DNA of 64,000 bases from a virus. The stretch spans positions 24,828 through 88,827 of IMG/VR virus record IMGVR_UViG_3300033549_000069; one strand, written 5' to 3'. Below are positions 6,766 through 60,186 of this stretch, piece by piece (within the stretch, counting starts at the first letter, position 1; each line of letters opens with the position of its first letter). The position numbers were made by a program, and so were the translations under genes. Below the pieces are notes generated by a model. It saw only the letters and a list, made by a program, of their open reading frames with translations, did no database searches and had not been told where the DNA came from.

Positions 6766-8154
6766 TCACAATTTTTTTCCATAGTCTTGGATGGCTACGT
6801 CAATATCCGTTGCATTGACCGCGTAGCCCATGCGCACGATCTGGCCCGGATTCGGTACGCTCGCCAGCAGGACCAGCGCGCCGTTGGTGCCCAGGAAGTA
6901 GGGGGTGTTCACCGTCGCGCCGCTCAGCACGGCTGTGCAGACGCCGATCTTGACTACCTCTGACGTGCCGGGGTTGGCCGCGCCGCCCGTGCGCGCCACG
7001 CCGATGGCGCGACAGTTGGCCGCAGCCGCGTTGTCCGCGTGGATCACCTCGCTGTCCACGCCACTCCAGCGCACCGCACGCCCCGCCGTGACCGCCGCGT
7101 TGTTCAGATGCGTCGCCTCGACCCGCTGCGCCTCCGCCACCGAGTGCGTATGCAAACTGTCCGCGTTGGAGCTGCTGCCCGCCGTGAGGGTGTTGAGGTT
7201 GCCCGCTGTGACGTTGGCCGACACCGCGCCGTCGTTGATGGTGAATAGCGAGGGCAGACCCGTGACCCCGAGGCCGTCCGCGTCCACCTTCAGGGTGCCC
7301 GGGGTGGCGTCGATCTCGATCTCCACGCCCGTGGCGCCCACGATCACGCCGTGCGCGCCGTCCGCCAGCACCGCCAGCTTCTTGTTCGGGCTGGTGCCGG
7401 TGAGTTGCAAGCCGGGGTTCGACGCGGCGAGGTCGATGGCGATGTCGTCCGATCCCACCGCGATGCCGTCGCCCTTGCCCACGTCCAGCGTGTTGCCGGT
7501 CTTGGTGAGGCCCGCGCCCGCGTTGATCTGGCCAGTGCCGCTGAACTGCACCCAGGCCGACCCGTTGTAGGTCCACGCCGTATCGCTCCACACGCCGCCG
7601 TCCCCGTTCACCAGCGCGGCCCAGCCATCCAGCGGAACCTCAAACGACCACGTGTTCAGCGTGGCGTTGTACGTGCCGATCTTGTTGGCGTGCGTTGCGA
7701 ACGATCCCGCTGCGCCCGTGGCCTTGACCACCACGCGCGTGCCGTTGGCGGGCTCATCCACCGTCGCGGCCTGGATCAAGACCCACGCCGTGCCGCTATA
7801 CTCGACGATGTCGCCGTCCGTGAACCCGCCCGTCAACCATCCGTTCACGACGTAGCAGTCCCCCTTGACCATGCCGGTCGGATCGGCGATCCCGCCCATG
7901 TCGGAGTCGTCGACCATGTTGAGGACCAGCACCGGGGGCTTCCACATGAGCCCGCTGGCGACGTTGTCCACATACGCCTTGGTCGCGGCCTCCTGCGCGT
8001 TCAGGGGGTCCAGCAACCCTGTGATGGTGTGCGACCCCATCCCGATGTTGCCACCCATGGTCAACCCGGCGAGGCTGATCGTGTCACTGGTGGGATCCGA
8101 CTCCTCGTGGTAGCCGTAGTCGGGGTTCATGAACATGAACTTGCGCTCTGTCAT
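6766..8154 (-). CDS. fibre/decoration-like virion protein (paralog of 26718..27872)
   Basis: NAQEAATKAYVD, GLMWKPPV...AGAGLTKTGNTLDV fibre motifs; C-terminal capsid-cement-like domain (RAIGVA...YFLGTNG...RMGYA). Confidence 0.7.
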   Translation of the reverse strand: MTERKFMFMNPDYGYHEESDPTSDTISLAGLTMGGNIGMGSHTITGLLDPLNAQEAATKAYVDNVASGLMWKPPVLVLNMVDDSDMGGIADPTGMVKGDCYVVNGWLTGGFTDGDIVEYSGTAWVLIQAATVDEPANGTRVVVKATGAAGSFATHANKIGTYNATLNTWSFEVPLDGWAALVNGDGGVWSDTAWTYNGSAWVQFSGTGQINAGAGLTKTGNTLDVGKGDGIAVGSDDIAIDLAASNPGLQLTGTSPNKKLAVLADGAHGVIVGATGVEIEIDATPGTLKVDADGLGVTGLPSLFTINDGAVSANVTAGNLNTLTAGSSSNADSLHTHSVAEAQRVEATHLNNAAVTAGRAVRWSGVDSEVIHADNAAAANCRAIGVARTGGAANPGTSEVVKIGVCTAVLSGATVNTPYFLGTNGALVLLASVPNPGQIVRMGYAVNATDIDVAIQDYGKKL

Positions 8155-8206
8155 TAGTCTCCTCCGTGTTCACTGGCCCCGCCGATCCCGTTCGGCGCTG
8201 GGCGTC

Positions 8207-8662
8207 CTAGTTGTCTATCTGCGGGGCCGCCTGGAGCTGCCCCGCCTCGTTCACCGTGTACTGATCCAAATTCACGCCAAGTCGCGTCTGTACTGTCGCT
8301 CGAACCTTATTGTAGTCGTCCTTCGCGCGCTCCATCGACCCAATGCACTCCCGTTGGCGCAGGCGCAGCGTGTCTCGATTCTTAATATACTCCAAGTTCA
8401 GGAGCTGCTCTTGCAACGCGAACTTTTCGCCCTGGACGCGGTTCATCTCCACCCGCTGCTCGTGCAGCATCAACTGCACCATCTCCAACTCCGTCAACGC
8501 CATCGTCCCGTTGTCCGGCTGTGCCGCCTCCGCCATCTTGCCAGTCAAACCATCGAGCGGCGGCGGATAGAACTGCGGCACATCAATCGCTATCACCTCT
8601 TCAACTTTTCGCACTTTTTTCGCCATCTTCCTGATCCTTTCGATGTCAACCATTGTGCCCAC
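8207..8662 (-). CDS. hypothetical coiled-coil protein
   Basis: 151-aa ORF with a helical E/Q/R-rich segment. Confidence 0.65.
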   Translation of the reverse strand: MGTMVDIERIRKMAKKVRKVEEVIAIDVPQFYPPPLDGLTGKMAEAAQPDNGTMALTELEMVQLMLHEQRVEMNRVQGEKFALQEQLLNLEYIKNRDTLRLRQRECIGSMERAKDDYNKVRATVQTRLGVNLDQYTVNEAGQLQAAPQIDN

Positions 8663-8675
8663 AACTTTCCAGCTC

Positions 8676-9098
8676 TTAGCCCAACCGCTTCGTCAGCGGT
8701 CCCACTTCGCCCGTTAAAAATAGCACGTCTGTCGCCACCGGAATACCAAAACGCTGCACGATTATGCCCTCACCGGTATCAGGAACTGGCAGAATGACCG
8801 TTGGTCGCCCGTCTATCCCCACCCAGTAATTCGTCGCAAACAGTAGCCCCGCGTACACCCCGCGCACGCTGCCCGCCCGCTGCATGATCCCCGTCGTCGG
8901 CGTCACCTTGCGCAGGAGCACCCCGATCCCAGGCATCTTGGTCACGTCCGTCGGATCCGCCCGCTGCACACGCCAGCGCCCCGTCACCGTCGCCGTGTCC
9001 CGTAACGCCACCACGTCCCCCACAGCGTCGGTCGAGAGACACGCCACATGAACGGTCTCGGAGCTAGCGCCAAACCCAAAGCGAGCAACTGCAACCAC
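8676..9098 (-). CDS. putative decoration/cement-like protein
   Basis: VGDVV...ADPTD..KMP.IGVL...G...G......YWVG.DG pattern, similar to the C-terminus of 6766..8154. Confidence 0.5.
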   Translation of the reverse strand: MVAVARFGFGASSETVHVACLSTDAVGDVVALRDTATVTGRWRVQRADPTDVTKMPGIGVLLRKVTPTTGIMQRAGSVRGVYAGLLFATNYWVGIDGRPTVILPVPDTGEGIIVQRFGIPVATDVLFLTGEVGPLTKRLG

Positions 9099-48041: not shown

Positions 48042-48371
48042 CTACAGCTCCACGGCGGGCCTCGGGGGGTGCTCGCGCTCCTCCCGGGCCAGGCCGCGCA
48101 AGGCAGCCTTCACGTTGCTCGACCCGCTCACCTTACCGCCGAGCTTTTGCAGGGTGTGTACGACGATGGGGTACAGCGCTAGGCGCAGCTCTGCCACAAG
48201 CGCGTTCACGTCGCCGTCCTTGCCGATGACCGCCTGTGCCTTTGGCGACACCTGCGACCCCGACAGCATGGCGTCGATCAAGCGCTCCACTTCAGCGCGC
48301 CCGGATCGAAACTCCGGCGCTGCCTCTTCCAAAGCACGCCGCACTTCATGAGCCAACCTGCGTAACGTCAT
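48042..48371 (-). CDS. leader-family protein (candidate internal head protein)
   Basis: Start MTLRRLAHEVRRALEEA with GGAGG RBS. Confidence 0.7.
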   Translation of the reverse strand: MTLRRLAHEVRRALEEAAPEFRSGRAEVERLIDAMLSGSQVSPKAQAVIGKDGDVNALVAELRLALYPIVVHTLQKLGGKVSGSSNVKAALRGLAREEREHPPRPAVEL

Positions 48372-48387
48372 GCTTGCCTCCAGGCGT

Positions 48388-48723
48388 CTACTCAACGCCG
48401 ATGTCGCCCCGTGCTGCGCTCTTCATTTCCCTGCCTGCCTTGGCCAACACGCCACCGGAAACCTCCACGCCGGCGACGTCCAGGGCCTTCGCAATCAGAG
48501 CCCGCAAGGGCTCCAACATCAACCCATGGAACATCTCCAACTGGTCCGTGTCGAAGATGCGCCCCGTCAGCGGGTCCAGCTTCGGGCTGTTCAACATGGC
48601 CTTCGCCATGCGGTCTATCAGCCCCGCGTTCACTGCCTCGCCCATCGGTTCGCCGCCGCTCGACAGCTCAACCTCGCGCATGATCTTCCGCATGGTGTTC
48701 ATCTTGGAAATTTTCGCGTTCAT
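48388..48723 (-). CDS. leader-family-like protein
   Basis: MNAKISKMNTMRKIMREVE. Confidence 0.7.
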   Translation of the reverse strand: MNAKISKMNTMRKIMREVELSSGGEPMGEAVNAGLIDRMAKAMLNSPKLDPLTGRIFDTDQLEMFHGLMLEPLRALIAKALDVAGVEVSGGVLAKAGREMKSAARGDIGVE

Positions 48724-48732
48724 CAGATTCTC

Positions 48733-48888
48733 CTATGGCCCGCCTGTGGCTGGGACCGCCGGCAACGGCGCATTGGTGCTCATGGATATCGGCAACGGCA
48801 CAATACCCGACGTGCGAGACCGCCGCAAATCAACCGAAGATTTTCGACCCTTCCTCGTGCTCTGGATCTTCTTTACCTCGACAATCAT
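48733..48888 (-). CDS. 51-aa basic hypothetical protein (not in ORF track)
   Basis: MIVEVKKIQSTRKGRKSSVDLRRSRTSG...; ATGA overlap with the upstream stop. Confidence 0.55.
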   Translation of the reverse strand: MIVEVKKIQSTRKGRKSSVDLRRSRTSGIVPLPISMSTNAPLPAVPATGGP

Positions 48889-49220
48889 CGCGTCTCCCGT
48901 GGCCGCAGCTCCAACACGGCCCCCCGCTCGGTGCGGGTCACCTCGGCATTCCCAATATCTTCCGCCATGCCAAACCGCTTGGCAAGCTGCTGCGCCACAG
49001 ACATCGCATGCCGCCCCTCGATCCGCATAACCAACGAAATCCCACGCGGCCTCTCCACCGCCTCAAACCGATAGCGCGTCACAAGCCGACCTCGTACCGC
49101 ACGCTCCCCCTGAGTCCGCAACGACCGCATTATCCGCTCGTCAGCCTCAGACAGCACAACCCTTCGGGGAGCCGGAGGCAAATCGTCGAGCAAAGCACGC
49201 AATCGGTCGCTTGAATTCAT
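48885..49220 (-). CDS. hypothetical protein
   Basis: 111-aa ORF in operon. Confidence 0.65.
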   Translation of the reverse strand: MNSSDRLRALLDDLPPAPRRVVLSEADERIMRSLRTQGERAVRGRLVTRYRFEAVERPRGISLVMRIEGRHAMSVAQQLAKRFGMAEDIGNAEVTRTERGAVLELRPRETR

Positions 49221-49235
49221 CCTCCACGCATCCCT

Positions 49236-49580
49236 TCAGAGATCGTATGTGGCCACCAACGATGGCTTCCCGTAACGCTCCTTCAACTCCCAGGCGCTCT
49301 TCGTGTGCTGCTTCAACCAGGTCATGGCCTGCCGCAACGTCTCATCCTTCTCGCGCTCCCCAGGCGCGTCCAGATTCACATAGATCTCCACCGTATCAAG
49401 CGCGGTTCTCGACACTCCAACACCGCCCAAGAAGCGCACCTTCCCGCCGATCTCCCGGTTCAAGGCCCGCCCCAACTGGCTCGCCCACTCCTCCATCTCA
49501 CCCCATGACTTCCGAAAATCCGCAACCACTGGCTCCCCGGCATTGGCCCTCGCCTCAAACAGCTTCAGCATGGTTTCCAT
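49236..49580 (-). CDS. leader-family protein, paralog of 51270..51674
   Basis: METMLKLFEA leader; C-terminal LVATYDL. Confidence 0.7.
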   Translation of the reverse strand: METMLKLFEARANAGEPVVADFRKSWGEMEEWASQLGRALNREIGGKVRFLGGVGVSRTALDTVEIYVNLDAPGEREKDETLRQAMTWLKQHTKSAWELKERYGKPSLVATYDL

Positions 49581-49591
49581 GTGCGACCCTT

Positions 49592-50260
49592 TCATACGAT
49601 CAACTGCTCTAGTAGGTAGCGGCCGTCTGCATGGCTGGCGAAATCAGAATGCGCCACAACGCCCGGTCCCGGCTTCGCGTACCACCCCAATGGAGGAGCC
49701 TTCCAGCCAGAGATCTTGGGTGTCTTCGCGTTAAAGTTCTTCGTCGGAAACACATATGGAATCTTCATCAATTCGCACAGCCAAGGAACCAGCGCTTGAA
49801 TGCACGCCACCTGGATTCCAAGCGGTGCCTGGTAGGTCCGCGCATGACCAGGCGGAACCCACGTCCACCAATTCGCCGGCAACACAGGACCGCACGGCTT
49901 CCTTGCGAATTCCGGTCTGTAGGCGTTCACAACCTCGATCCCAACAGAGGTGGAGTTGAGCTGGTTTCCGTGAAAACAAATGTCCAACGCCAAGTCCGCG
50001 TGACACGACAGCAGACCGTCCTTGCCCAAGATCAGATGCACGCCGAGCTTCTTCTCACGCAACGTGTCCTTGCACCCCGTCGCGCTGTTCCCAGCCGTCT
50101 CGTGAAGCACAAGATGCGAAACCTTCGCCGTGCGCGGCTTGTTGCGCAAGCAGGGCTCCTCATCGTCGATGTAGTTGGTGCCACGCACGCCCAGGTCCAA
50201 CACCGCTTTGGGCAGCGACACCTTCTCACCATTCACGATCAAGCTGTTCGAGGGCTGCAT
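49592..50260 (-). CDS. N-acetylmuramoyl-L-alanine amidase (type 2), probable endolysin
   Basis: LVLHETA...GVHL.LG.DG...H......FHG...NS.SVGIE...VVAHSD Zn-amidase motifs; start MQPSNS with GGAGG. Confidence 0.85.
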   Translation of the reverse strand: MQPSNSLIVNGEKVSLPKAVLDLGVRGTNYIDDEEPCLRNKPRTAKVSHLVLHETAGNSATGCKDTLREKKLGVHLILGKDGLLSCHADLALDICFHGNQLNSTSVGIEVVNAYRPEFARKPCGPVLPANWWTWVPPGHARTYQAPLGIQVACIQALVPWLCELMKIPYVFPTKNFNAKTPKISGWKAPPLGWYAKPGPGVVAHSDFASHADGRYLLEQLIV

Positions 50261-50302
50261 GGGGCCTCCTGTCTGCCTACCGTCGTTCACCGCCATCCAT
50301 CA

Positions 50303-50332
50303 TCACCGTCCGTGCGCCGCCGCCGCGTTTTT
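50303..50332 (-). repeat. cassette repeat R4 (KNAAAAHGR*)
   Basis: Degenerate copy of the 3' end of 51684..52298. Confidence 0.7.
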
Positions 50333-50359
50333 ATCCAATTTCATGACATATTCAAAAGT

Positions 50360-50695
50360 TCACTTCTTTGCTCTTTTTCTTGATCCCTTCTTTGCATCAT
50401 TTATAAGAGTCTGCAAAACCATTATAGACAAATATGTTGCAATCTGCTCATCAACATCGGAATCACTCAACCCGTGCTGTTCTGCCTTTTCCTTCACTTG
50501 ATCTATAAGTCGAGCAGCTTCTTTCTCCCATGTGCCTCTTTCGTCGCGCAGTAACCAATCTTTTCCTTCAATGCTTTGCATCTGTTCCGCTGCCATCTTC
50601 ACAATTCTTCTTGGTCGGCCATGATCTCCTCCGAGAGATTGGGCCTCCATTATCTTCTGCATTCCCTCAATCAGACTCTTCATGCTCCGTGCCAT
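50360..50695 (-). CDS. AT-rich leader-family protein
   Basis: MARSMKSLIEGMQKIMEA; flanked by R3 and R4. Confidence 0.75.
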   Translation of the reverse strand: MARSMKSLIEGMQKIMEAQSLGGDHGRPRRIVKMAAEQMQSIEGKDWLLRDERGTWEKEAARLIDQVKEKAEQHGLSDSDVDEQIATYLSIMVLQTLINDAKKGSRKRAKK

Positions 50696-50707
50696 CGCTT
50701 ACCTCTT

Positions 50708-50737
50708 TTACTTGTGCGCAGCCGAAGCCGCGTTCTT
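50708..50737 (-). repeat. cassette repeat R3 (KNAASAAHK*)
   Basis: 23/24 identity to R1 over 50714-50737. Confidence 0.85.
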
Positions 50738-51188
50738 AAATTTCCTTACCCTGAAAACGGAACTTCTGCTCCCATGCTACTTTCCCTGAAGCATCCATAA
50801 TTCTATTGATTCCGAGCTTTTTCAGCTTCTCCATATCTCCGATGTACCATTTCCCATCAAAGACACTCATGCCGTAAAATGCCTGTTTCTCTTTTGCGAA
50901 TTCCTTCGCCATTTCTTCATTGCCAACCTTGACCATGGACTCCATCTGGAGTCTCTCAAACAACTGGCGCATCCCATTCGATGCCAGTTGTTCGGACTGC
51001 TCAACTGGGCTCACTTCCACATGCCAACCAATGGTGGCGCCATGCACGCCCCACTTTTTCATCGCTTTCCCGATGGCGTGCTTCTTCGCATCTTTCCCAG
51101 GATTCGTCTTCACGACACCCAAAAGCTTCTTAACCCCTTCATCCGGGATCACCTGATACGCATTCCAGGACTGTAGCTCTATTCCCAT
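50736..51188 (-). CDS. AT-rich protein with an internal leader-like motif
   Basis: Internal MRQLFERLQMES at about residue 73; flanked by R2 and R3. Confidence 0.75.
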   Translation of the reverse strand: MGIELQSWNAYQVIPDEGVKKLLGVVKTNPGKDAKKHAIGKAMKKWGVHGATIGWHVEVSPVEQSEQLASNGMRQLFERLQMESMVKVGNEEMAKEFAKEKQAFYGMSVFDGKWYIGDMEKLKKLGINRIMDASGKVAWEQKFRFQGKEI

Positions 51189-51208
51189 GACGCTCTCCTT
51201 TTCATCTA

Positions 51209-51256
51209 CCGTGAGCAGCCGAAGCCGCGTTCTTGCCCGCCGTTGTCAGACTCAAC
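51209..51256 (-). repeat. cassette repeat R2 (LSLTTAGKNAASAAHGR*)
   Basis: 45/48 identity to R1 (51694-51741). Confidence 0.9.
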
Positions 51257-51269
51257 AGCATCTAAAGCT

Positions 51270-51674
51270 TCAGAAATCATAGGTGGCAACAAGCGCAAAC
51301 TTTCGGTTCCGCTTTGCCTTCACCCATGTGCTATTCGTTAAATTCTGTAACCTGACCAACGCCATATCAAATACATCTTCTTCATCCAGCGTGCCAAGCA
51401 TATGAAAACTCAATACCACCTCCACAGCATCACCCACTCCCTTGGCTACACCAATACTTCCCACGATCTTGACGCCATCTCCAATACTCTTAGTCAACCG
51501 CTTCCCGATGTCATCCGCCCACACGGACAACCCACTCCAAGCGTTCCGTATCGACGTTGCATACGGTTCATTCGGATTCGTCATAGACTCTCCCAATAAT
51601 CTAATCGTTCCAATGCCTGCAACGTCATCGGATGCTGCCTTCAACTGCTCAGCCAGCTTGCGCATCGTGGACAT
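51270..51674 (-). CDS. AT-rich leader-family protein, paralog of 49236..49580
   Basis: MSTMRKLAE...LLGES; flanked by R1 and R2. Confidence 0.75.
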   Translation of the reverse strand: MSTMRKLAEQLKAASDDVAGIGTIRLLGESMTNPNEPYATSIRNAWSGLSVWADDIGKRLTKSIGDGVKIVGSIGVAKGVGDAVEVVLSFHMLGTLDEEDVFDMALVRLQNLTNSTWVKAKRNRKFALVATYDF

Positions 51675-51683
51675 TCGTCTCTC

Positions 51684-52298
51684 CTAACGTCGTCCGTGAG
51701 CAGCCGAAGCCGCGTTCTTGCCCGCCGTCGTCAAGCTCAACGCCCCTGCCTTGTTCCGTGCAATCCATCCACGCTCGACCAGCGCGTCCACCTCGCCCGG
51801 CTGCACCTTCATGTCCGCGAACAGCTCCTTGCGATAGCTCGACGTCATCGCCATGCTCCGCAGGATGCCCGCCTCACGATCCGTCATCTCCACGGCCCCC
51901 GGCAGCAACGGCACCACGCTGTCGGGATGCACGTAGATCGTCGCGTAGGTGCCCCGCCCGCCACTCGACCCCACGATGGCCACGCCGTCCCGAGGCAGCG
52001 GATGCTCGCCACGATCCTGGTCGATAGAGGGCTTCCCCACCGGGCTGTACCCGCCCCAGTCGCCCTGCACCGTCTTGGTCGCGCCCGTGGCCAGGTTCAC
52101 CAGCACCGCGAAGCCCCGCTCCCCGTCCCCCGCGTAGGGGTTCAGGCTGACCAGCGCCTGCGGCACCACCGCGATGTCCCGGCTCCGGTAGCCCACGTCC
52201 TTCAACGCCTTGCGCAGCACGTCCGGCAGCTCCTTCACGAGCACCTCCGTGCCACGGGCCTCCATGATCCGCTCCACTCGCTCGATCAAGTGCCTCAT
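51684..52298 (-). CDS. leader-family protein whose 3' end is repeat R1
   Basis: MRHLIERVERIMEA; ends ALSLTTAGKNAASAAHGRR. Confidence 0.8.
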   Translation of the reverse strand: MRHLIERVERIMEARGTEVLVKELPDVLRKALKDVGYRSRDIAVVPQALVSLNPYAGDGERGFAVLVNLATGATKTVQGDWGGYSPVGKPSIDQDRGEHPLPRDGVAIVGSSGGRGTYATIYVHPDSVVPLLPGAVEMTDREAGILRSMAMTSSYRKELFADMKVQPGEVDALVERGWIARNKAGALSLTTAGKNAASAAHGRR

Positions 52299-52711
52299 CC
52301 GATCCTCCCAATGGCTTTCTTCAAACGATCCACCTGCCCCCGTAGACGCTCATAACTCTCCACCACAGCAGATGGATCCGATGCCGTGGTTCCAGCCTTT
52401 CGCACCCTCATCCACGCCGACTCGAACGCCTTGTAAGCGGCATCCATGTCGGTAGCTATGTCCTCAATTTCGTGGGCAAGCTCGTCGTTCCCAACGTCCA
52501 GGAGACCGGAAAAGACTCGGTCGGCGATCCGCCGGGCATTGCGATAGACGTCCTCCGCCGTGTTCCTGTCCTCAAGCGCAATCTCGTTGGATCGAACACG
52601 CGGGATCGCACGAATTTCCATAGAAAACTCCGCTATCTGCCTGATGGCGACATTCGCACTGCGGGCCTCCATGATCCGTTCAAACCGCTCGATCAAGGTT
52701 CTCATCGTCAT
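52295..52711 (-). CDS. leader-family helical protein
   Basis: MTMRTLIERFERIMEA; leader DNA 37/44 identical to that of 51684..52298. Confidence 0.8.
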   Translation of the reverse strand: MTMRTLIERFERIMEARSANVAIRQIAEFSMEIRAIPRVRSNEIALEDRNTAEDVYRNARRIADRVFSGLLDVGNDELAHEIEDIATDMDAAYKAFESAWMRVRKAGTTASDPSAVVESYERLRGQVDRLKKAIGRIG

Positions 52712-52726
52712 GGCTCTCTCCTATCC

Positions 52727-53305
52727 CTACTTGCCATGCAGGTCATTGTAGCTCTTCCAGTTCAACTGCGGCGACTTCTCCGACATCGTGACCTTCATCG
52801 GCCCGAACTTGCCCGTCACCATCACGGACTTCTGCGAGACTTTGGTCACCGTCTGGTAGCTGCCCGAGAGCACCACCCACACGACATCGCCCACCTTCAC
52901 CTGGTCGGCCCGCGTAATGGCGTTCTCCCGGCCGCGCTCCTTGGCCTGCGCCGCTGCCGCATCCTTCTCCGCTGCCTGCTGCGCCAGGAAGATCGCCATG
53001 TCGGCGTCAGGATGCACGTCCGCGTCCTTGCGCTGGAACTTCCCCTCGGCAAACGCCTTCAACACCGCCTGCCGCCACTTATCCTTCGCCGCCGCCGACG
53101 CCTCCCACTCCCCCGCCCGCTTCTTGTCGTACTGCGCCTTGGCACTCTTGCTCATGTGCGCGTACTGCATCGGGCTGATCTCAGCGACCCAGGGCTCATG
53201 GACGTTCAAGGCCGCCTGATACGCCGACGCCCCCACCGTCCAGGGACGATCCAAGATCCACTCCCTCCCCTCGACCGCCTCGAACAGGGATCGCATGGTC
53301 GTCAT
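52727..53305 (-). CDS. leader-family protein with a C-terminal SH3/KOW-like barrel
   Basis: MTTMRSLFEA; ADQVKVGDVVWV......VTKVSQKSV. Confidence 0.75.
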   Translation of the reverse strand: MTTMRSLFEAVEGREWILDRPWTVGASAYQAALNVHEPWVAEISPMQYAHMSKSAKAQYDKKRAGEWEASAAAKDKWRQAVLKAFAEGKFQRKDADVHPDADMAIFLAQQAAEKDAAAAQAKERGRENAITRADQVKVGDVVWVVLSGSYQTVTKVSQKSVMVTGKFGPMKVTMSEKSPQLNWKSYNDLHGK

Positions 53306-54102
53306 CTGCCAAATGCCTCGGCGAAGAGATTCACGACATTCTGTGCCGTAACCATCCCTGCCCGCATCCGAACATCGCGTTCCACGCGCTGTAGGCCATC
53401 AGCCGCTTTCCAGCTCGCGTTGATCAGAACCTCGTGACCATCCCCTGTTCCCGTAACTAAACTCCCCTGCCACTCCAGATCGAAATCACTGCGATTCTGC
53501 CCCTTGTACTCCACCCAGACAGTGTTGCGCGAGCGCTCCACATTGACGGACTCGGCATGGCCACCCGCCAATTTCTTGATGCCCGCCGCCACCTCTTTAC
53601 AGAACATCTCCAAGGCATCGCCCTCGAAGTCGGCCCAGGTACGTCCCGATCCGCTGGCCTCGTCGATCCGTGCTTCGGACAGGCCCCTGTGGCCACAGAC
53701 CACTCGAACGTCCTCGTAAATAGATACCGCTTTTTTAGGAAATTCTATTTGGTAGTAAACATAGTTATCAACATCGTCATGTCGCCACACCCATATTTTA
53801 TTTTCACTTCCAATCGTCCTGACTAAAACAGCTTCGATGTCATCCTCAAGATCATACGCCTCTCCAGGATATTTTTTCCATGGAACACCAAAGACAAAAC
53901 GCACGTTCATTGGAGGAGAATGTATTCCAACCTTCCAGTCATGCAGCCCGCGTCCCATCTTTTTCAAAACAAACTTGTTCAACGCCGACTTGACATCATC
54001 TACACTAACGCCTTCGGACAGGCTCCTGTGGCCACGTCCCGCTGCCACGTCGCCCTCGACCAGCGCCCTCATGTCCTTCACCAATGTTCGCATCGTTGCC
54101 AT
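53302..54102 (-). CDS. leader-family two-domain polyprotein-like protein
   Basis: MATMRTLVKDMRALVEG; GHRSLSE...GHRGLSE direct repeats flank an AT-rich 113-codon module. Confidence 0.8.
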   Translation of the reverse strand: MATMRTLVKDMRALVEGDVAAGRGHRSLSEGVSVDDVKSALNKFVLKKMGRGLHDWKVGIHSPPMNVRFVFGVPWKKYPGEAYDLEDDIEAVLVRTIGSENKIWVWRHDDVDNYVYYQIEFPKKAVSIYEDVRVVCGHRGLSEARIDEASGSGRTWADFEGDALEMFCKEVAAGIKKLAGGHAESVNVERSRNTVWVEYKGQNRSDFDLEWQGSLVTGTGDGHEVLINASWKAADGLQRVERDVRMRAGMVTAQNVVNLFAEAFGR

Positions 54103-54112
54103 GGCTCACTCC

Positions 54113-54550
54113 TTATCGCGCTACGTCGCTCACGCTCCGGCGCACCTTGGGAAACATCATGTTCATCGACCGCAACGGGACCGATCCCGCTGCCGTCCAG
54201 CCCACCGCCGTCAGGATCATCTCTACCGCTGCGAGGTCCGCGTCCTCGGCCTCCACCACCACCCCCACGTCCGCCGTCTTCACGTACCAGAACCCAAAGC
54301 CCATCCGCGACCACCGCACATGCACGTCCGCCGCCTCCGCCGGATCGTTCGGCACGATGACCACCACGCGCACCTCCCCCACCGGGCGCTTGTTCGCCCC
54401 CAGGAGCGGCGCCCACAGGCGAGCCGTAGCACGAGCAGCCCCCTGGCTCGGGCGCGGCTGTGGGGCCTCACGGGCCGTCAGGCGACGCTCCAGCAGCATC
54501 GCCCGCACGCGATCCAGGATGCCCGCCGCGACCTGTGCCCGTTCATCCAT
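54113..54550 (-). CDS. hypothetical protein (leader-like RAMLLE)
   Basis: 145-aa ORF with AGG RBS in operon. Confidence 0.65.
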   Translation of the reverse strand: MDERAQVAAGILDRVRAMLLERRLTAREAPQPRPSQGAARATARLWAPLLGANKRPVGEVRVVVIVPNDPAEAADVHVRWSRMGFGFWYVKTADVGVVVEAEDADLAAVEMILTAVGWTAAGSVPLRSMNMMFPKVRRSVSDVAR

Positions 54551-54558
54551 CAGTGACC

Positions 54559-55152
54559 CTACCTCCGCTGGGCCATCCAGGCCCGCGACGTCGTGAGCAA
54601 CTGGTCAGCCGCCTTCTGCAAGCTGTGCAAAGCCGCATCCCGCTGTTTCCAGTTCTTCTTCTTCTCCTGGTCCTGTGCCAGCTCGAAATCATCGACAACA
54701 GCGATCACCCACCGGCCAATGTCCGACATCGTCCCGCTGGTGGAGGCTTCCTGGTCCTTGGCATACGCCTCGACGTGCTTCCGCACCCAGGCGTTTTTGC
54801 CAAACACGGACGCCACGACGCGCTTCACGTCCGCCATCTTGGGATTGAACACCCGGCCATACGCAGCCGTATCCGGGGTCGGCAACGTGTCCTTCAATTC
54901 CGCCGCCACCAGATCGCCAAAGTTCATCCCGCTCTTCGAGTCCAGGTAGTTACGGATCGCCGCCGACGATACGTCTGGCATCTCGGACATGATCAGGCGA
55001 AATGTCTCCGCCCAGATCGCGTCCGCGTTTTCAAACCGGAACTCGATCCGTCCGAAGTACCCGTAGTCCCGCTGCTCGGTCGGCAAGATCTGGCCCTGCC
55101 GCTTCATGGTCGCCTCGGTCAACAGGCCGGATAGTCGTCGCATCGTCGTCAT
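54559..55152 (-). CDS. leader-family protein
   Basis: MTTMRRLSGLLTEA. Confidence 0.8.
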   Translation of the reverse strand: MTTMRRLSGLLTEATMKRQGQILPTEQRDYGYFGRIEFRFENADAIWAETFRLIMSEMPDVSSAAIRNYLDSKSGMNFGDLVAAELKDTLPTPDTAAYGRVFNPKMADVKRVVASVFGKNAWVRKHVEAYAKDQEASTSGTMSDIGRWVIAVVDDFELAQDQEKKKNWKQRDAALHSLQKAADQLLTTSRAWMAQRR

Positions 55153-55187
55153 GGCATCCTCCAGGCGAACCCAGGTTCGCGTCTATG
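55140..55187 (-). repeat. cassette repeat P1, containing palindrome copy 10 (55163-55182), RBS and ATGACGACGATG
   Basis: 44/48 identity to 55735-55782. Confidence 0.9.
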
Positions 55188-55291
55188 TTCCTTACTGGTC
55201 AGAAGCGATCCTAGTCATGCTTATATCCTTTGAGGAATTGATATTCCATGTCATGGCTTTCCTCCAAGTGATTACAGATCGTTTCAACAAA

Positions 55292-55747
55292 TCACCTGAC
55301 TGAAAAATCAGATAATTTCATCGCAAACAAATCACTATCTTCAGTACGGTCCAAGACTCCTTTCACCTCATCAACCACGCGTCCAATGATCACTTTCCCA
55401 CGCGCATTCCGCTTTTCATGTTTCTTGCCCTGTTCAGAATAAGTCTTCCCGGTGTCATCAAGTAACTGCGCAAGCAATTCGATCCTGTCATCATTAATCG
55501 TAAAACTGATTTCTGCCCACCGCCCATCGACAATATCCGTCGAGAACTGCACATCCCACTGGTTTGATGATGCGTCATATCCAGCAAGGTTGAGTGTCTT
55601 GGAGAAGTCCAATGCCACACTGGGTAATTTCCACTTCCGCGCCAGATCCGTTGCCAATCGCAGCAGAACACCACTGACAAGAGATTTTTTAGTATTTCCT
55701 TTGCCCAGCAAAACCAACCCCTCGATCAGTGTCCGCATCGTTGTCAT
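55292..55747 (-). CDS. AT-rich leader-family protein
   Basis: MTTMRTLIEG; flanked by P1 and P2. Confidence 0.75.
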   Translation of the reverse strand: MTTMRTLIEGLVLLGKGNTKKSLVSGVLLRLATDLARKWKLPSVALDFSKTLNLAGYDASSNQWDVQFSTDIVDGRWAEISFTINDDRIELLAQLLDDTGKTYSEQGKKHEKRNARGKVIIGRVVDEVKGVLDRTEDSDLFAMKLSDFSVR

Positions 55748-55782
55748 GTCATCCTCCGGGCGAACTCAGGTTCGCGTCTATG
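55735..55782 (-). repeat. cassette repeat P2, containing palindrome copy 11 (55758-55777)
   Basis: 44/48 identity to 55140-55187. Confidence 0.9.
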
Positions 55783-56506
55783 CTTCAGCCTGCACATAGG
55801 CAAACACGTCTTCCATCTTCGGCTTGCGCTTCCGCGTCTTCTTCACCGGCTCCGCTCCCTGTGGAGGCGGCGCAACCGACTTCTTGCCCTTGCCCGCCTT
55901 CGGCTTGGCCTTCGCCTTCTCCCCGCCGGATCGCGCCCCCGCCTTCTGCGCCTGCGCCGTGGCATAGGCGTGGCTCTCGCCGCCCTTGACGTGCTTCTTG
56001 TAGGTGTCCTGGGACGCCTTCCACGCCGCGTCCCCCGCCTTGCGGCCCTTGGTGTCCGCCACCTTCTTCGCCGCCGCATGGGCCTTCTTGCCCGCGTCCG
56101 TGAACCGATACGCCGCGCCCTGCACCGCCCGCTTGGCCGCCACGCCCTTCTGGACCGCCTTCTGCGCCCCCGCCACGGCCTTCTTGGCCGCGCCCCCCAC
56201 CACCTTGCCGCCCTTCACGATCTTGCCGAATACCATCTTCGCGCCCGGCGGCAACTTGCTCGCAATCTGCGTCTTCTTCTTGGCCATCCAGCTCCGAAAC
56301 CCCTCCAGCATATCGTCCTGGTCTTCGGATAGCGCCCCCGCCTCCGCCGCACCAATGAGCTGGGCCATGATCGCCAGACGCTCCACATCTTCCTCGTCGA
56401 ACACCTCGTCCAGAAGATCGTCGTCTGCTGCCAGGATCGCCTCGAAGAACTCCGCCTCATCCTGGGCAGTCTCCATGCTCTCAAACAGATCGTTCATGGT
56501 CGTCAT
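55778..56506 (-). CDS. leader-family protein with an acidic pro-region and a Lys/Ala-rich histone H1-like body
   Basis: MTTMNDLFES, ~65 aa D/E-rich segment, then AKKAVAGAQKAVQKG...KAKAKPKAGKGKK. Confidence 0.8.
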   Translation of the reverse strand: MTTMNDLFESMETAQDEAEFFEAILAADDDLLDEVFDEEDVERLAIMAQLIGAAEAGALSEDQDDMLEGFRSWMAKKKTQIASKLPPGAKMVFGKIVKGGKVVGGAAKKAVAGAQKAVQKGVAAKRAVQGAAYRFTDAGKKAHAAAKKVADTKGRKAGDAAWKASQDTYKKHVKGGESHAYATAQAQKAGARSGGEKAKAKPKAGKGKKSVAPPPQGAEPVKKTRKRKPKMEDVFAYVQAEA

Positions 56507-56518
56507 GGCAGTGCTCCT

Positions 56519-58051
56519 TCAGTCCAACATGCTGTAGGCGTGATAGTCCAGATCCGCTGCCGACATCGCCCGCAACAGCTCCCGGAACGTCATGCCCTTG
56601 ATCTCCGCTTGGTGCGACCCCACCCACGCATAGAACCGCGCAATCGCAGTCTTCTTCGCGCCGCCTACCGGCGGAATCACCGCCGTCACGTCCTGGCCGT
56701 CCGTCCCCGGCCGGGGCTTCTCCATCACGTCGAATTCCGTGCGCGACGCCTTCAGCGTGAACGTCGGCGTCTCGACCTGGATCGCGGACCCCGCCGCCGG
56801 TGCCATCGGCTCCACATCGACCCCGCGAAGATCGCGCTCCTCAATGCTCGCAAACGACATCCCGCGCTGTGAATCCTTCGCCGCTACCCCACGGGCAATG
56901 GCCACCGCCTGCGCATAGGTCTTCGCCTTCACGATGGCCTTCAACGCCTCGTTGATCTTCGCCACGTCCTTGGGATCGCGCTGGCCGTAGTCCAGGTTGA
57001 ACAGGGCGAACTCGGGGCACTTCTTGCCGCGCTTCCCCGCATTGGTGACGTCCGTCACGCGCAGGCTGGAATTGAAGCGGTGCATGCGCAGGTTGTCCCG
57101 CTCGATGGTCTGCCCCACTGCCAACCCCGCCTGCTGGTCAACGTAGAGCATCTCCTCGGCCTCGGGCAGCGCCGCTCGCCCCTCCCGCGCCACGTCCTCT
57201 TCCCGCACCTTGGACAGCGCCTTGAAGGCTGCCTCGTGCGCTCTGTACCCATCCTTGGTCAGCCGCTCGAATGCCGCCTCGACCTGCTTCCACCAACCGG
57301 CTACAGCCTGCCCCGCCGCTGCCGCCGACTTGAACTCCTTGCCGTCGAACATCGCCTCCCAGGTGGGCAGTCCCTTGCGGTCTACGCGCCACGCCTTCCC
57401 CGCATCGTCCTCCTGAATGATGCGCAGCGGCACGTCAACTGACCCCAACTTGAAGGTCCGCCCGTAGGCCGTCCGCTTGCCATTCGGGCTCGGGTGCTCG
57501 TCCCAGCCCTTGAGGTACAGCGCCTGGGCCTGCTTGTGCATGTCAAACGCCATCTCTTCGCCCATCGCCGCTGCCCCGCCCGGATCCACCATGTCCTTGC
57601 GTGCCCGTATCGCCGTCGAAAACTTGGGCGCGAAGTCCTTGGTCAGCGTCCCCTCCCGCGTCTTGTCCATGACCTTTTCCGCTATCGCGGTCGCGGCCCG
57701 CAACGCCTCCCGGTTCTCCTTGCGCTTCGGATCGCGGAGCAAGTCGACCTTGTGCGCATACGGCTTCGTGCTCAGCTTGGCCATCTCCGGCACGCCGCTG
57801 ATCAACTGCCAGTCGCCCTTGGGATTCTTCCACAGCGTCACAGCACCGCCGGTCTTCCCATCGACCCACACCACCCACTCGTCGGCCTTCGACGAATACT
57901 CAATCTCGTACCCAGCCTGCTCCATCATGACGGAAAGGAGATTGACGATGCGCCTGGCTTCTTCCGCCGCCGCCTTCTCGCCCTTGCCCTCGTATTGAAT
58001 CTCTCTCGCGGAAGCCATCAGATGGTTGAGTCTCTTAATCAGTCGTCTCAT
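56519..58051 (-). CDS. large multi-domain leader-like protein
   Basis: MRRLIKRL start with GAGGAGG RBS; C-terminal LRVTDVTNAGKRGK domain; function not recognised. Confidence 0.75.
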   Translation of the reverse strand: MRRLIKRLNHLMASAREIQYEGKGEKAAAEEARRIVNLLSVMMEQAGYEIEYSSKADEWVVWVDGKTGGAVTLWKNPKGDWQLISGVPEMAKLSTKPYAHKVDLLRDPKRKENREALRAATAIAEKVMDKTREGTLTKDFAPKFSTAIRARKDMVDPGGAAAMGEEMAFDMHKQAQALYLKGWDEHPSPNGKRTAYGRTFKLGSVDVPLRIIQEDDAGKAWRVDRKGLPTWEAMFDGKEFKSAAAAGQAVAGWWKQVEAAFERLTKDGYRAHEAAFKALSKVREEDVAREGRAALPEAEEMLYVDQQAGLAVGQTIERDNLRMHRFNSSLRVTDVTNAGKRGKKCPEFALFNLDYGQRDPKDVAKINEALKAIVKAKTYAQAVAIARGVAAKDSQRGMSFASIEERDLRGVDVEPMAPAAGSAIQVETPTFTLKASRTEFDVMEKPRPGTDGQDVTAVIPPVGGAKKTAIARFYAWVGSHQAEIKGMTFRELLRAMSAADLDYHAYSMLD

Positions 58052-58053
58052 CA

Positions 58054-58094
58054 CGTCCTCCTCATGTCACGCTCAGCAGGGCGAATTCCGTCAC
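58054..58094 (-). repeat. T3: orphan copy of the tail tube 3' end (TEFALLSVT*) plus RBS
   Basis: 29/32 identity to 58566-58597. Confidence 0.85.
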
Positions 58095-58134
58095 GGACGA
58101 ACACTCAGTCCTGCGGATAATCAGCGTCCTTGCT

Positions 58135-58563
58135 TTACTTCCTCTGAGTTGAGACAATCCGAACGCCATGAATCAAGAGATTACCACTTCCTTTTATGTC
58201 TATCGCTGCGTTCCAAGGGAACGCCCGTTTTGTCCAATTACTTAATTTCTCAAAATACTCGTCATATGCGCCAGTATTAGGTTTCAGTGCCTCGGGTGGC
58301 GCGACCACCTCGATTTCCATACTAAGCATATTCCCATTCGGAGAAATATCGACATTCACATCCAACCCCCGTAGTCCCATGATGGCATCCAACTCCAGCA
58401 AGATCTCGTGCTCTACTTTGCGTATGAGACCATTCAGTTCTGAATGATTCTTCTCAATCTGCTTGAACATGTCAGGAACCTTGGACTTACCCATGGCACC
58501 ACTGGCCTCATCCATCTCTATCGACCCAATAACGTCCTGAATCTGTTCGATCAACTTCCTCAT
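58135..58563 (-). CDS. AT-rich leader-family protein
   Basis: MRKLIEQIQ...MDEA; flanked by T2 and T3. Confidence 0.75.
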   Translation of the reverse strand: MRKLIEQIQDVIGSIEMDEASGAMGKSKVPDMFKQIEKNHSELNGLIRKVEHEILLELDAIMGLRGLDVNVDISPNGNMLSMEIEVVAPPEALKPNTGAYDEYFEKLSNWTKRAFPWNAAIDIKGSGNLLIHGVRIVSTQRK

Positions 58564-58573
58564 CGCGTCCTCC

Positions 58574-59587
58574 TCACGTCACGCTCAGGAGCGCGAATAG
58601 CCCATGCTTACGCTCACTGCGCATTGTCTCGATACTATCACCCCACAACCACTGGCCCCACAAGCGAGCACGATCTCCATACAGAACAACGGTGTGTCTA
58701 TCCGCATGCGTTTTCTTACGTGCCTTGCCATGCTGAACCTTCGGCCGCCGACCAGCGATCTGCGCCATCCGATCTGCAATGGACTCAATGATCGATTTCG
58801 CTGCAAGCCCAATCCCGATGACAGGCTTCATCGGATCACGCCCCACCCATCCATCCGCATCGAACAGACCGCGCAAAAAATGTGTCTCCAATTCGACTGG
58901 CAGAGACCTCGGCCACACCAGCGTGCGCGCCTTAGCAGGCGTCACCCCCCACCGTGCGATGTTCCGTGCCAACCGCATGCTTCCGATCTCTGCAATGAAA
59001 CATCCGCCTTTTTTATTGACCGGATGCTCACTGCCAAGAATCGCCAACACCTTGCACACGACATCCTCATCCCCACACACACCTACGCCATGCTCCACAC
59101 CATTGGCCCGAGCAATCCACCCGTTTCCGTAAATGACCCCCAGCGCCCATGCCCGTGGAACGTCTAGCTCCCCATCGAAGGCCGCCTCGTTGACCGCGTA
59201 CTGGCGCATACGCTGCGAAGTCGCATCCGCTGCCAATATCGCCGCCTCTTTCCGAGTACGTAGGATGCCCGCACGCTCTATGACGCCCATCACAAAGCCA
59301 ACCGGAACACCCATTTCTTTGGCAATAGCCGTCGTCCCCATCCCGTCGCAATACAGCGCCTCGGCCTGCTCACATACCGCTCTCCCACGGAATCGTCCAA
59401 GCCCTCGCTCCACCGCCAACGCATGCGATGCCGCATGACTCCTCATGCGCATCCCAGAAGCAGTTACCCAGTTGCTAACGGACTGCACCGAGGCACTCAT
59501 ACGAGTTGCCACCGCTCCCAAGGATTCCCCGCCAACGTATGCGGCTACCGCTTCCATCCGTTCCTGCTCACTAAATCTCTTTCCCAT
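58574..59587 (-). mobile_element. free-standing double-motif LAGLIDADG homing endonuclease with N-terminal HTH repeats
   Basis: Start MGKRFS at 59587 (GGAGG); VNEAAFD...WALGVIYGNG and HFLRGLFDADGWV; ends FALLSVT like the tail tube. Confidence 0.85.
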
Positions 59588-59622
59588 GGCACACCTCCGA
59601 TTTGGAGATTGTACCGTTTTCT

Positions 59623-60186
59623 TTACGTAACAGACAAGAGACAAAACTCGGTCATCGCGTGAGCTTGCACATCGAGTTCCATGATGCTCACATCCCCCGT
59701 CATCGCGTCCAGGTCCGTGCCCGCCTTGTAGCGGATCGGTATTGCGTCCCACAACAACCAAGCTCGGCCCGGCAGGAACTGCGCGACCTCCCACGCCTCG
59801 ATGGCCACGGGCAGGTCCACGCTCACCCCCAGGGCGTTCGCCACGTTGATGTTCGTGTACTGCAACAGCAGCAGGTTGCGCGGCACCATGTCGTACCCAC
59901 GAATCGCCCGCTCTACCCACATCATGAACGTGTCGTCATACGCCCTCGCACCGCGCGTCAGCGTGATCTGCCCAACACTCCCGCCGCTGTAGGCGTACCG
60001 CTTGTACATTGAGTTGACCTGCTTGATCTCGTCCACCTCAAGCGTCACCTCCGGCATCGTGATCGACTGGAATCCCATGATAGGGGCTCCCATCACGTAG
60101 AACGGAAACGTCGAGGAAGGGATCATGTCTACCAGCCAAAAGCGGTAGGACTGAAGCAGATCTTCCAATGGATGGCGACTCGGCAT
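59623..60186 (-). CDS. tail tube protein 2 (T4 gp19-like)
   Basis: GFQSITMPEVTLEVDEIKQ...VGQITLTRG...F..W...P..YK.GTDLDA..GDV.I.EL. Confidence 0.85.
   Translation of the reverse strand: MPSRHPLEDLLQSYRFWLVDMIPSSTFPFYVMGAPIMGFQSITMPEVTLEVDEIKQVNSMYKRYAYSGGSVGQITLTRGARAYDDTFMMWVERAIRGYDMVPRNLLLLQYTNINVANALGVSVDLPVAIEAWEVAQFLPGRAWLLWDAIPIRYKAGTDLDAMTGDVSIMELDVQAHAMTEFCLLSVT

Follow-up and report, generated by a model that had tools for sequence, protein, structure and literature searches.

The 64,000 nucleotide stretch of DNA analysed here, referred to as the window (positions 24,828 to 88,827 of IMG/VR virus record IMGVR_UViG_3300033549_000069), includes a locus, between a gene designated g204 and a gene for an N-acetylmuramoyl-L-alanine amidase, in which copies of a short direct repeat, R, alternate with single small genes. 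This locus is very probably a hyperplastic region in which single-gene cassettes are inserted, deleted and reordered by recombination at R. Repeats are present on both sides of the cassettes, cassette content is polymorphic among related phages with breakpoints located in R, and R-to-R junctions were found in natural populations. The source of the window is a 106-kb viral contig (G000; 59% GC, estimated to be 58% complete), and all genes of the region are carried on the minus strand. The features of the locus, in the direction of transcription, are:

51684..52298, minus strand: g204, anchor gene (open reading frame, ORF), with an N-terminal MRHLIERVERIMEA leader
51694..51741, minus strand: R1, coding repeat copy (LSLTTAGKNAASAAHG) formed by the last 16 codons of g204; core at 51694-51719
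51270..51674, minus strand: g134 (49% GC), with leader MSTMRKLAE; a diverged paralogue of g119
51209..51256, minus strand: R2, non-coding 48-nt copy with a 19-codon remnant ORF; 45/48 identical to R1
50736..51188, minus strand: g150 (48% GC), no N-terminal leader; internal leader-like MRQLFERLQME at residues 73-83
50708..50737, minus strand: R3, core copy (core at 50712-50737), overlapping the g150 stop codon in another frame
50360..50695, minus strand: g111 (44% GC), with leader MARSMKSLIEGMQKIMEA; near-identical copies in relatives
50303..50332, minus strand: R4, degenerate copy that has 3 substitutions and lacks one codon
49592..50296, minus strand: N-acetylmuramoyl-L-alanine amidase (lysis), the conserved downstream anchor; Pfam Amidase_2, E 9.8e-9
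49236..49595, minus strand: g119, GC-rich resident paralogue of cassette gene g134, from BLASTP

An earlier note on this DNA had described a four-copy repeat array derived from the tail of g204, with exactly one gene between successive copies. R1 to R4 were found where it had placed them, the identity of R1 and R2 and the 19-amino acid (aa) remnant at R2 were both correct, and the ORFs at 51270-51674, 50736-51188 and 50360-50695, and no others, were found between the repeats. Its hand counts of GC, 20/60 at 50341-50400 and 41/60 at 52021-52080, were also exact. The three positions at which R1 and R2 differ are all synonymous, and the left half of R2 is identical to the g204 tail allele of two related loci, L001 and L022. 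R3 matches R1 and R2 at 24/30 positions in register and includes an exact 21-nt core, and the orthologue of R4 in L001 (Rb) is an intact copy. The 17-mer AACGCGGCTTCGGCTGC occurs 3 times, against 0.23 occurrences expected even with 3 mismatches allowed, and 0/100 shuffles reached 3 occurrences. No further copies of R were found in the 106-kb contig, R being confined to the g204-amidase locus.

When read on the gene strand, all copies still encode K-N-A-A-(S)-A-A-H-x-stop, with R2 reading MLLSLTTAGKNAASAAHGR, R3 reading KNAASAAHK and R4 reading KNAAAAHGR, each followed by a stop. As R2, R3 and R4 are each out of frame with the preceding gene, they are remnants of a coding tail and not tags. Each R lies 10-25 nt upstream of the ribosome-binding site (RBS) of the next gene and ends in a stop codon, and the units are 485, 497 and ~405 nt in length. 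Translation of the KNAAS frame by programmed frameshifting out of the cassette genes was considered and dropped, as the offsets differ among the junctions and a stop precedes R2.

Nine related loci were recovered from scans with g204 and the amidase and from look-ups of cassette homologues. At least eight different gene sets were found between g204 and the amidase in these nine contigs and in eight metagenome runs. The sets in the window and in seven of the loci are:

Window, between the anchors: g134, g150, g111
L001, between the anchors: g111, g474, g149
L007, between the anchors: g149
L002, between the anchors: g460
L022, between the anchors: g111, g150
L029, between the anchors: g124, g446
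L005, without g204: g447
L020, without g204: R48 remnant, g133, g454

The flanks in the closest relatives are 93-97% identical to the window at the DNA level, and these relatives nevertheless differ in their cassettes, with breakpoints inside R, supporting the proposal in the earlier note that genes are gained and lost by recombination at short homologies. Cassette content in relatives had been chosen beforehand as a test of that proposal, and no identical fixed set was found, while junction variants exist. In a blastn comparison of the window with L001, collinearity stops at 51696 inside R1, returns for exactly R3, g111 and R4 (50737-50296), and then returns again at the amidase.

An alignment of 13 copies of R from the window and its relatives identified a core, AAGAACGCGGC...GC.CAC (~24-26 nt), as the sole part common to all copies, with the heptamer AACGCGG invariant in 13/13. 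The sequence to the left of the core always tracks the upstream gene, and the sequence to the right, including the stop codon and RBS, always tracks the downstream gene. Three pairs of neighbours were found for g111 (g150/amidase, g204/g474 and g204/g150), g149 is preceded by g474 in L001 and by g204 in L007, and g150 and g111 are found in both orders. Cassettes assort singly and not as a block.

The locus was also compared with Logan contigs of eight public metagenomes (sediment, wetland and mat). The exact R2-to-R1 junction (51250->51736, with 485 nt skipped), which represents the deletion form without g134, was bridged by one contig each in wetland runs X4 and X6, which belong to two studies. 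In X5 and X8, only the R2-side piece was found, together with further joints of the g134-less variant. One sediment run contains a g204-g111-g150 form plus a g204-g149-amidase form, run X1 carries two variants, and further cassettes are present on other Logan contigs. In a mat metagenome, two fragments are 100% identical to g111 and g150. Thus, of the two kinds of junction that the earlier note had proposed to look for, R-to-R deletion junctions were found (in the X4 and X6 contigs), but circular intermediates were not seen. A contig from X1 that 'goes back 902' was considered as a circular intermediate and rejected, as Joint Genome Institute (JGI) contig L022 has the same sequence in the linear arrangement g204-g111-g150.

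Every cassette consists of one complete gene with its own RBS. The cassette block is 47.8% GC against 60-61% for the flanks, and the cassette genes are 44-49% GC against 58-68% for g204 and the amidase. The three genes in the window, g134, g150 and g111, are mutually unrelated and differ from g204 in composition. The product of g134 is 31% identical to that of g119 (BLASTP, E 1e-21), is recorded on two contigs, and has a 63% homologue in L020 with the R48 remnant in front; g134 is missing from all close relatives and from the 8 metagenome runs. A 95% homologue of g150 is located after g111 in L022, and near-identical copies of g111 with R at both sides were found in L001 (g204 before, g474 after) and L022 (g204 before, g150 after). 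Scans of viral contigs using g134 and g150 found no relative. Searches of Pfam, PHROGs and the ESM Atlas gave nothing on the function of the cassette proteins, no nuclease family in Pfam or PHROGs was matched by g134, g150 or g111, and the AlphaFold2 (AF2) model of g150 (predicted local distance difference test score, pLDDT, 54) was too poor for a structure search. A further homologue of g150 (65%) was found at L018 6001-6477 in an unrelated phage of 62% GC, where it is also of low GC, and the genes of the array surrounding it begin with MRxLIRQLEEA.

The repeat corresponds to a conserved part of g204. Orthologues of g204 in L001, L002 and L007 share 85-96% aa identity, and the family comprises 31 clusters with identity down to 35%, in which the best-conserved block is the C-terminal NKAGALSLTTAGKNA (LSLTTAGKNA). 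R is thus coding sequence under strong constraint that borders a variable region, and it gives phages that have otherwise diverged an island of similar DNA. Members of the g204 family (proteins P0005-P0035) are widespread in phages and share the conserved C-terminal motif NKAGxxS(L/I)TTAGKNA. In the AF2 model of g204 (pLDDT 66), the conserved block forms the wing strand and last helix of a predicted winged-helix domain, for which Foldseek returned weak MarR-like matches, and on the basis of this fold g204 could be a packaged DNA-binding protein.

Features of an RNA or regulatory element were not detected in R. Eight copies fold no better than shuffles (z -1.8 to +1.7), a 5-bp stem closed by UUCG is missing from most of the minimum-energy folds, Rfam gave no match for R, and no extended inverted repeat is present within its 24-48 nt. 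A structured-RNA reading of the UUCG hairpin was accordingly rejected, with z near 0, the stem broken in 5/13 copies and Rfam empty. A promoter or terminator within R was also rejected, as no consensus for either was found on the gene-sense strand of R1-R4. On the opposite strand, a 5-bp terminator-like stem is present at 50312-50328 inside R4, but such sites are no commoner than in shuffles.

The g204-amidase locus lies in an array of at least 12 consecutive small genes extending from 48042 to 58563, between the tail-tube and baseplate genes, and the products of these genes, which are mostly ORFans, share only an M-R-x-L-I-E-type leader. The strict motif MR.[LI][LIVFM]E starts 11 ORFs, against 0 in 20 shuffles; of the three cassette genes in the window, g134 and g111 have the leader, whereas g150 lacks it at its N-terminus, and the same kind of leader-gene array is found in more distant relatives. 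Two other repeat-bounded units were identified in the window:

55139..55801, minus strand: second repeat-gene-repeat unit, with 68-nt direct repeats (81% identical) at 55139-55206 and 55734-55801
58047..58598, minus strand: third repeat-gene-repeat unit, with 40-nt direct repeats (90% identical) at 58047-58086 and 58559-58598
58574-59920: LAGLIDADG endonuclease gene, adjoining the third unit and a repeated tube-gene tail

Both units carry a gene of low GC (55292-55747 and 58135-58563, respectively), and their repeats are made of local junction sequence. The cassette of the second unit is replaced by other DNA in L001, and L001 precisely lacks the segment 58095-59644, which includes the LAGLIDADG gene, and has an uninterrupted tube gene there. 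Overall, L001 and the window have six or more differences across the 10-kb array. Within the 68-nt repeats are a GCGAAC-N4-GTTCGC palindrome, an RBS and the first part of the MTTM leader. The low-GC middle (53306-54010) of the gene at 53302-54102 is also occupied by other DNA in L001 (5881-6286), indicating that parts of genes are exchanged in addition to whole genes.

If recombination occurs at R, the g204-amidase locus would be one site in a hyperplastic array of ~10 kb made up of small leader-bearing genes. The tail of g204, as the most conserved block of its family, would remain alike between diverged co-infecting phages, and copies of R would travel along with the cassettes. An exchange inside the ~24-26 nt core could then couple any upstream unit to any downstream unit, and recombination between two R copies of one genome would remove the intervening gene. 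The excised gene could in principle form a circle able to re-enter at another R, and the first duplication of R would have required one illegitimate join. The enzyme involved is most likely the general recombination and replication machinery of the phage (UvsX/RecA type) and not a site-specific integrase. A search for a recombinase, suggested in the earlier note, found a RecA/UvsX-family protein (110 bits) encoded in a close relative, G001, a 168.7-kb contig estimated to be 91% complete. No tyrosine recombinase (PF00589) was found in either G000 or G001 in a search in which 14/14 control genomes were positive, and no serine recombinase (PF00239) was found in these two contigs.

Several observations weigh against exchange at R by general recombination. 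The RecA/UvsX-family gene was not found on the window's own contig (58% complete). The core of R is short, and the apparent exchange point at g111 has few identical bases on one side, making it a poor substrate for classical homologous recombination. The more distant relatives L002 and L029-L031 vary in their cassettes but carry only the native R with no downstream copies, indicating that exchange does not always require R. The variants were drawn from different samples or strains, with no event caught within one population, and no circular form was seen among the assembled contigs of the eight runs. In addition, the 48-nt form of R occurs with the same left-end nucleotide (TTGAGTCTGAC) in two unrelated contexts, at window position 51256 and at L020 533-608.

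The last of these observations, together with the sharp cassette boundaries, the presence of AACGCGG in all 13 copies, the very short identity at some apparent exchange points and the predominance of ORFans in the array, could be accounted for if R were the attachment site of a dedicated integron-like system with a recombinase or nuclease unrecognised by current profiles. R, with its AACGCGG core and defined left end, would then be the recognition site of a phage-encoded cassette-capture system, a functional analogue of the integron that adds new single genes to a repertoire of capsid-targeted injected proteins. Such a system is improbable, as neither type of site-specific recombinase is encoded in G000 or the 91%-complete G001, R lacks an attC-like inverted repeat and folds no better than shuffles, and its copies are restricted to one locus. 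The repeats at the two other cassettes in the window are also quite different, as would be expected of general recombination more than of a single dedicated site, and conservation of AACGCGG is accounted for by the conserved peptide KNAA. Still less probable is that R is kept for a role in expression, as a hairpin (GCGGC-UUCG-GCUGC), a processing site or a means of translational coupling, with the polymorphism produced by ordinary block replacement. The position of every R 10-25 nt before the next RBS, its terminal stop codon, and the 5-bp stem and UUCG loop possible in the three best copies in the window would suit this role, but L001 Ra, L002 Ra, L020, R4 and Rc all have a disrupted hairpin, the copies fold with the same energy as shuffled sequence, and most minimum-energy folds lack the stem. 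Neither an Rfam match nor a promoter or terminator consensus was found for R, and cassettes assort individually rather than blockwise.

Repair initiated by a homing endonuclease typically leaves a recoded functional end and a remnant of the old end. The cassettes could have been placed in this way after cleavage of the g204 tail, and duplicated 3' ends do occur near endonuclease-like genes, as at the LAGLIDADG gene with its repeated tube-gene tail and in L029, where a Cys-rich 313-aa ORF is accompanied by a second amidase C-terminus. The restriction of R1/R2 differences to three synonymous positions would also be consistent with recoding. However, differences of this kind resemble the ordinary allelic variation seen among the relatives, g134, g150 and g111 match no nuclease family, the nearest endonuclease gene is ~7 kb away, and such repair would not account for cassettes reassorting freely at R, so that this origin has a lower probability again. 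Least credible is an assembly artefact, or a tandem duplication followed by divergence. The metagenome-assembly source and the similar unit lengths might suggest one or the other, but reads are much longer than the repeats, the protein encoded by g134 is recorded on two contigs, and the JGI and Logan assemblies independently agree on related arrangements. The three cassette genes are moreover unrelated to each other and unlike g204 in composition. Recombination at R by general phage functions is therefore preferred.

The earlier note had likened the locus to a clustered regularly interspaced short palindromic repeats (CRISPR) array or an integron in layout only, with no integrase or attC visible, and this limited likeness was borne out by a comparison of defining features. 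CRISPR arrays have numerous near-identical repeats, short non-coding spacers of uniform length and cas genes. A CRISPR array was rejected, as there are four copies of R, two of them degenerate, and complete genes of 336-453 nt with an RBS lie between them; no cas-like matches were found among the neighbouring genes. In integrons, attC sites span 55-140 nt and consist of imperfect inverted repeats, which adopt their fold in single-stranded form. The locus resembles an integron in having single promoterless genes in one orientation, bounded by repeats and variable in number and order, but differs in having no IntI, attC structure or attI/Pc, and in having degenerate coding remnants as repeats. 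An integron was rejected, given that PF00589 and PF00239 are absent from G000 and G001 and that R lacks an attC-like fold.

The closest known system is the modular shuffling mediated by PeSLs (promoter-early stem-loops) in T4-type phages. PeSLs consist of a sigma-70-like early promoter and a terminator stem-loop and are scattered genome-wide (Arbiol et al. 2010, PMC2839356; Comeau et al. 2014, PMC4122927), and mini-circles have been demonstrated and the layout compared to integrons by the same authors (PMC2839356, PMC4122927). In both systems, short direct repeats surround single ORFans in hyperplastic regions, the junctions of indels and replacements between close relatives fall in the repeats, and there is general phage recombination machinery but no integrase. 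In contrast to a PeSL, R has no promoter or terminator on the gene-sense strand and no stable conserved stem, consists of the conserved 3' coding end of the gene upstream, and is restricted to one locus in a high-GC uncultivated phage lineage from sediment and wetland. The PeSL mini-circles were shown by inverse PCR, whereas assembled contigs were read here.

Metagenomic islands and flexible gene modules of environmental phages have been described as a community-scale pattern with no defined junction repeats (Bellas et al. 2020, PMC7468147). The present locus is similar to these islands in having a near-identical core across samples and interchangeable variants at fixed positions, several of them together in one sample, but its exchange points can be read to the nucleotide. 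The locus shows, at nucleotide resolution in natural populations, a lytic phage swapping single accessory genes on a stable core, with the exchange point being the most conserved coding block bordering the variable region rather than a regulatory cassette. This would widen the PeSL idea, in that a portable recombination site could be provided by any short conserved island beside a hyperplastic region.

The diverse internal proteins (IPs) of T4 have only a capsid-targeting sequence in common (PMC3012670, PMC5694885), and the IP loci of T-even phages are polymorphic (Repoila et al. 1994, as cited in PMC3012670). The array resembles these loci in encoding unrelated small proteins with a common short N-terminal leader ending in hydrophobic-x-Glu, in the presence of a gp21-type prohead protease and a Gp23-type capsid protein, and in gene content that differs between close relatives. 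It differs in that the M-R-x-L-I-E leader is not that of the T4 capsid-targeting sequence, and in that the array is far more extensive, with at least 12 genes, is located between tail-tube and baseplate genes and includes the leaderless g150. The likeness is drawn from the genes, with packaging and cleavage predicted. Taken with the T4 precedent, the leader and the gp21-type protease tip the balance slightly towards the cassettes being packaged cargo, and the missing N-terminal leader of g150 counts against this role. If the leader genes do encode injected head proteins, the array would represent a natural catalogue of interchangeable early-acting effectors, possibly with counter-defence roles. 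The boundaries are defined well enough for metagenomes to be mined for new candidates with g204 and the amidase as anchors.

The phage from which the window derives is an uncultivated, high-GC, T4-superfamily-like myovirus of a lineage sampled from sediment and wetland, and a search of GenBank phages with the locus gave no match. The window encodes a tail sheath, tube proteins, a gp6-like baseplate wedge and the LAGLIDADG endonuclease, and genes for a Gp23-type (T4) major capsid protein (190 bits) and a gp21-type prohead protease (Peptidase_S77 domain, 69 bits) are located elsewhere on its contig. The gp21-type protease domain (G000:C1:100354-100758) lies within a 577-aa open frame, the long C-terminal part of which is helical and Glu/Ala-rich, resembling a protease-scaffold fusion.

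Comparison with relatives indicates that the true start of the amidase is probably the ATG at 50260, which is preceded by GGAGG. In most of the relatives, a leader-bearing protein of 447-474 aa with a HELxHG (HExxH-like) motif is encoded directly before the amidase (L001 9020-10378, L002 8602-9984, L005 1476-2819 and L020 1005-2369). This protein is absent from the window, and Pfam gave no match for it. In L029, the amidase is followed by the Cys-rich 313-aa ORF (8016-8957), the end of which is a second copy of the amidase C-terminus (DGRYLLEQVMGGTLG), and from its sequence this ORF resembles an endonuclease-type insertion accompanied by duplication of a gene end.

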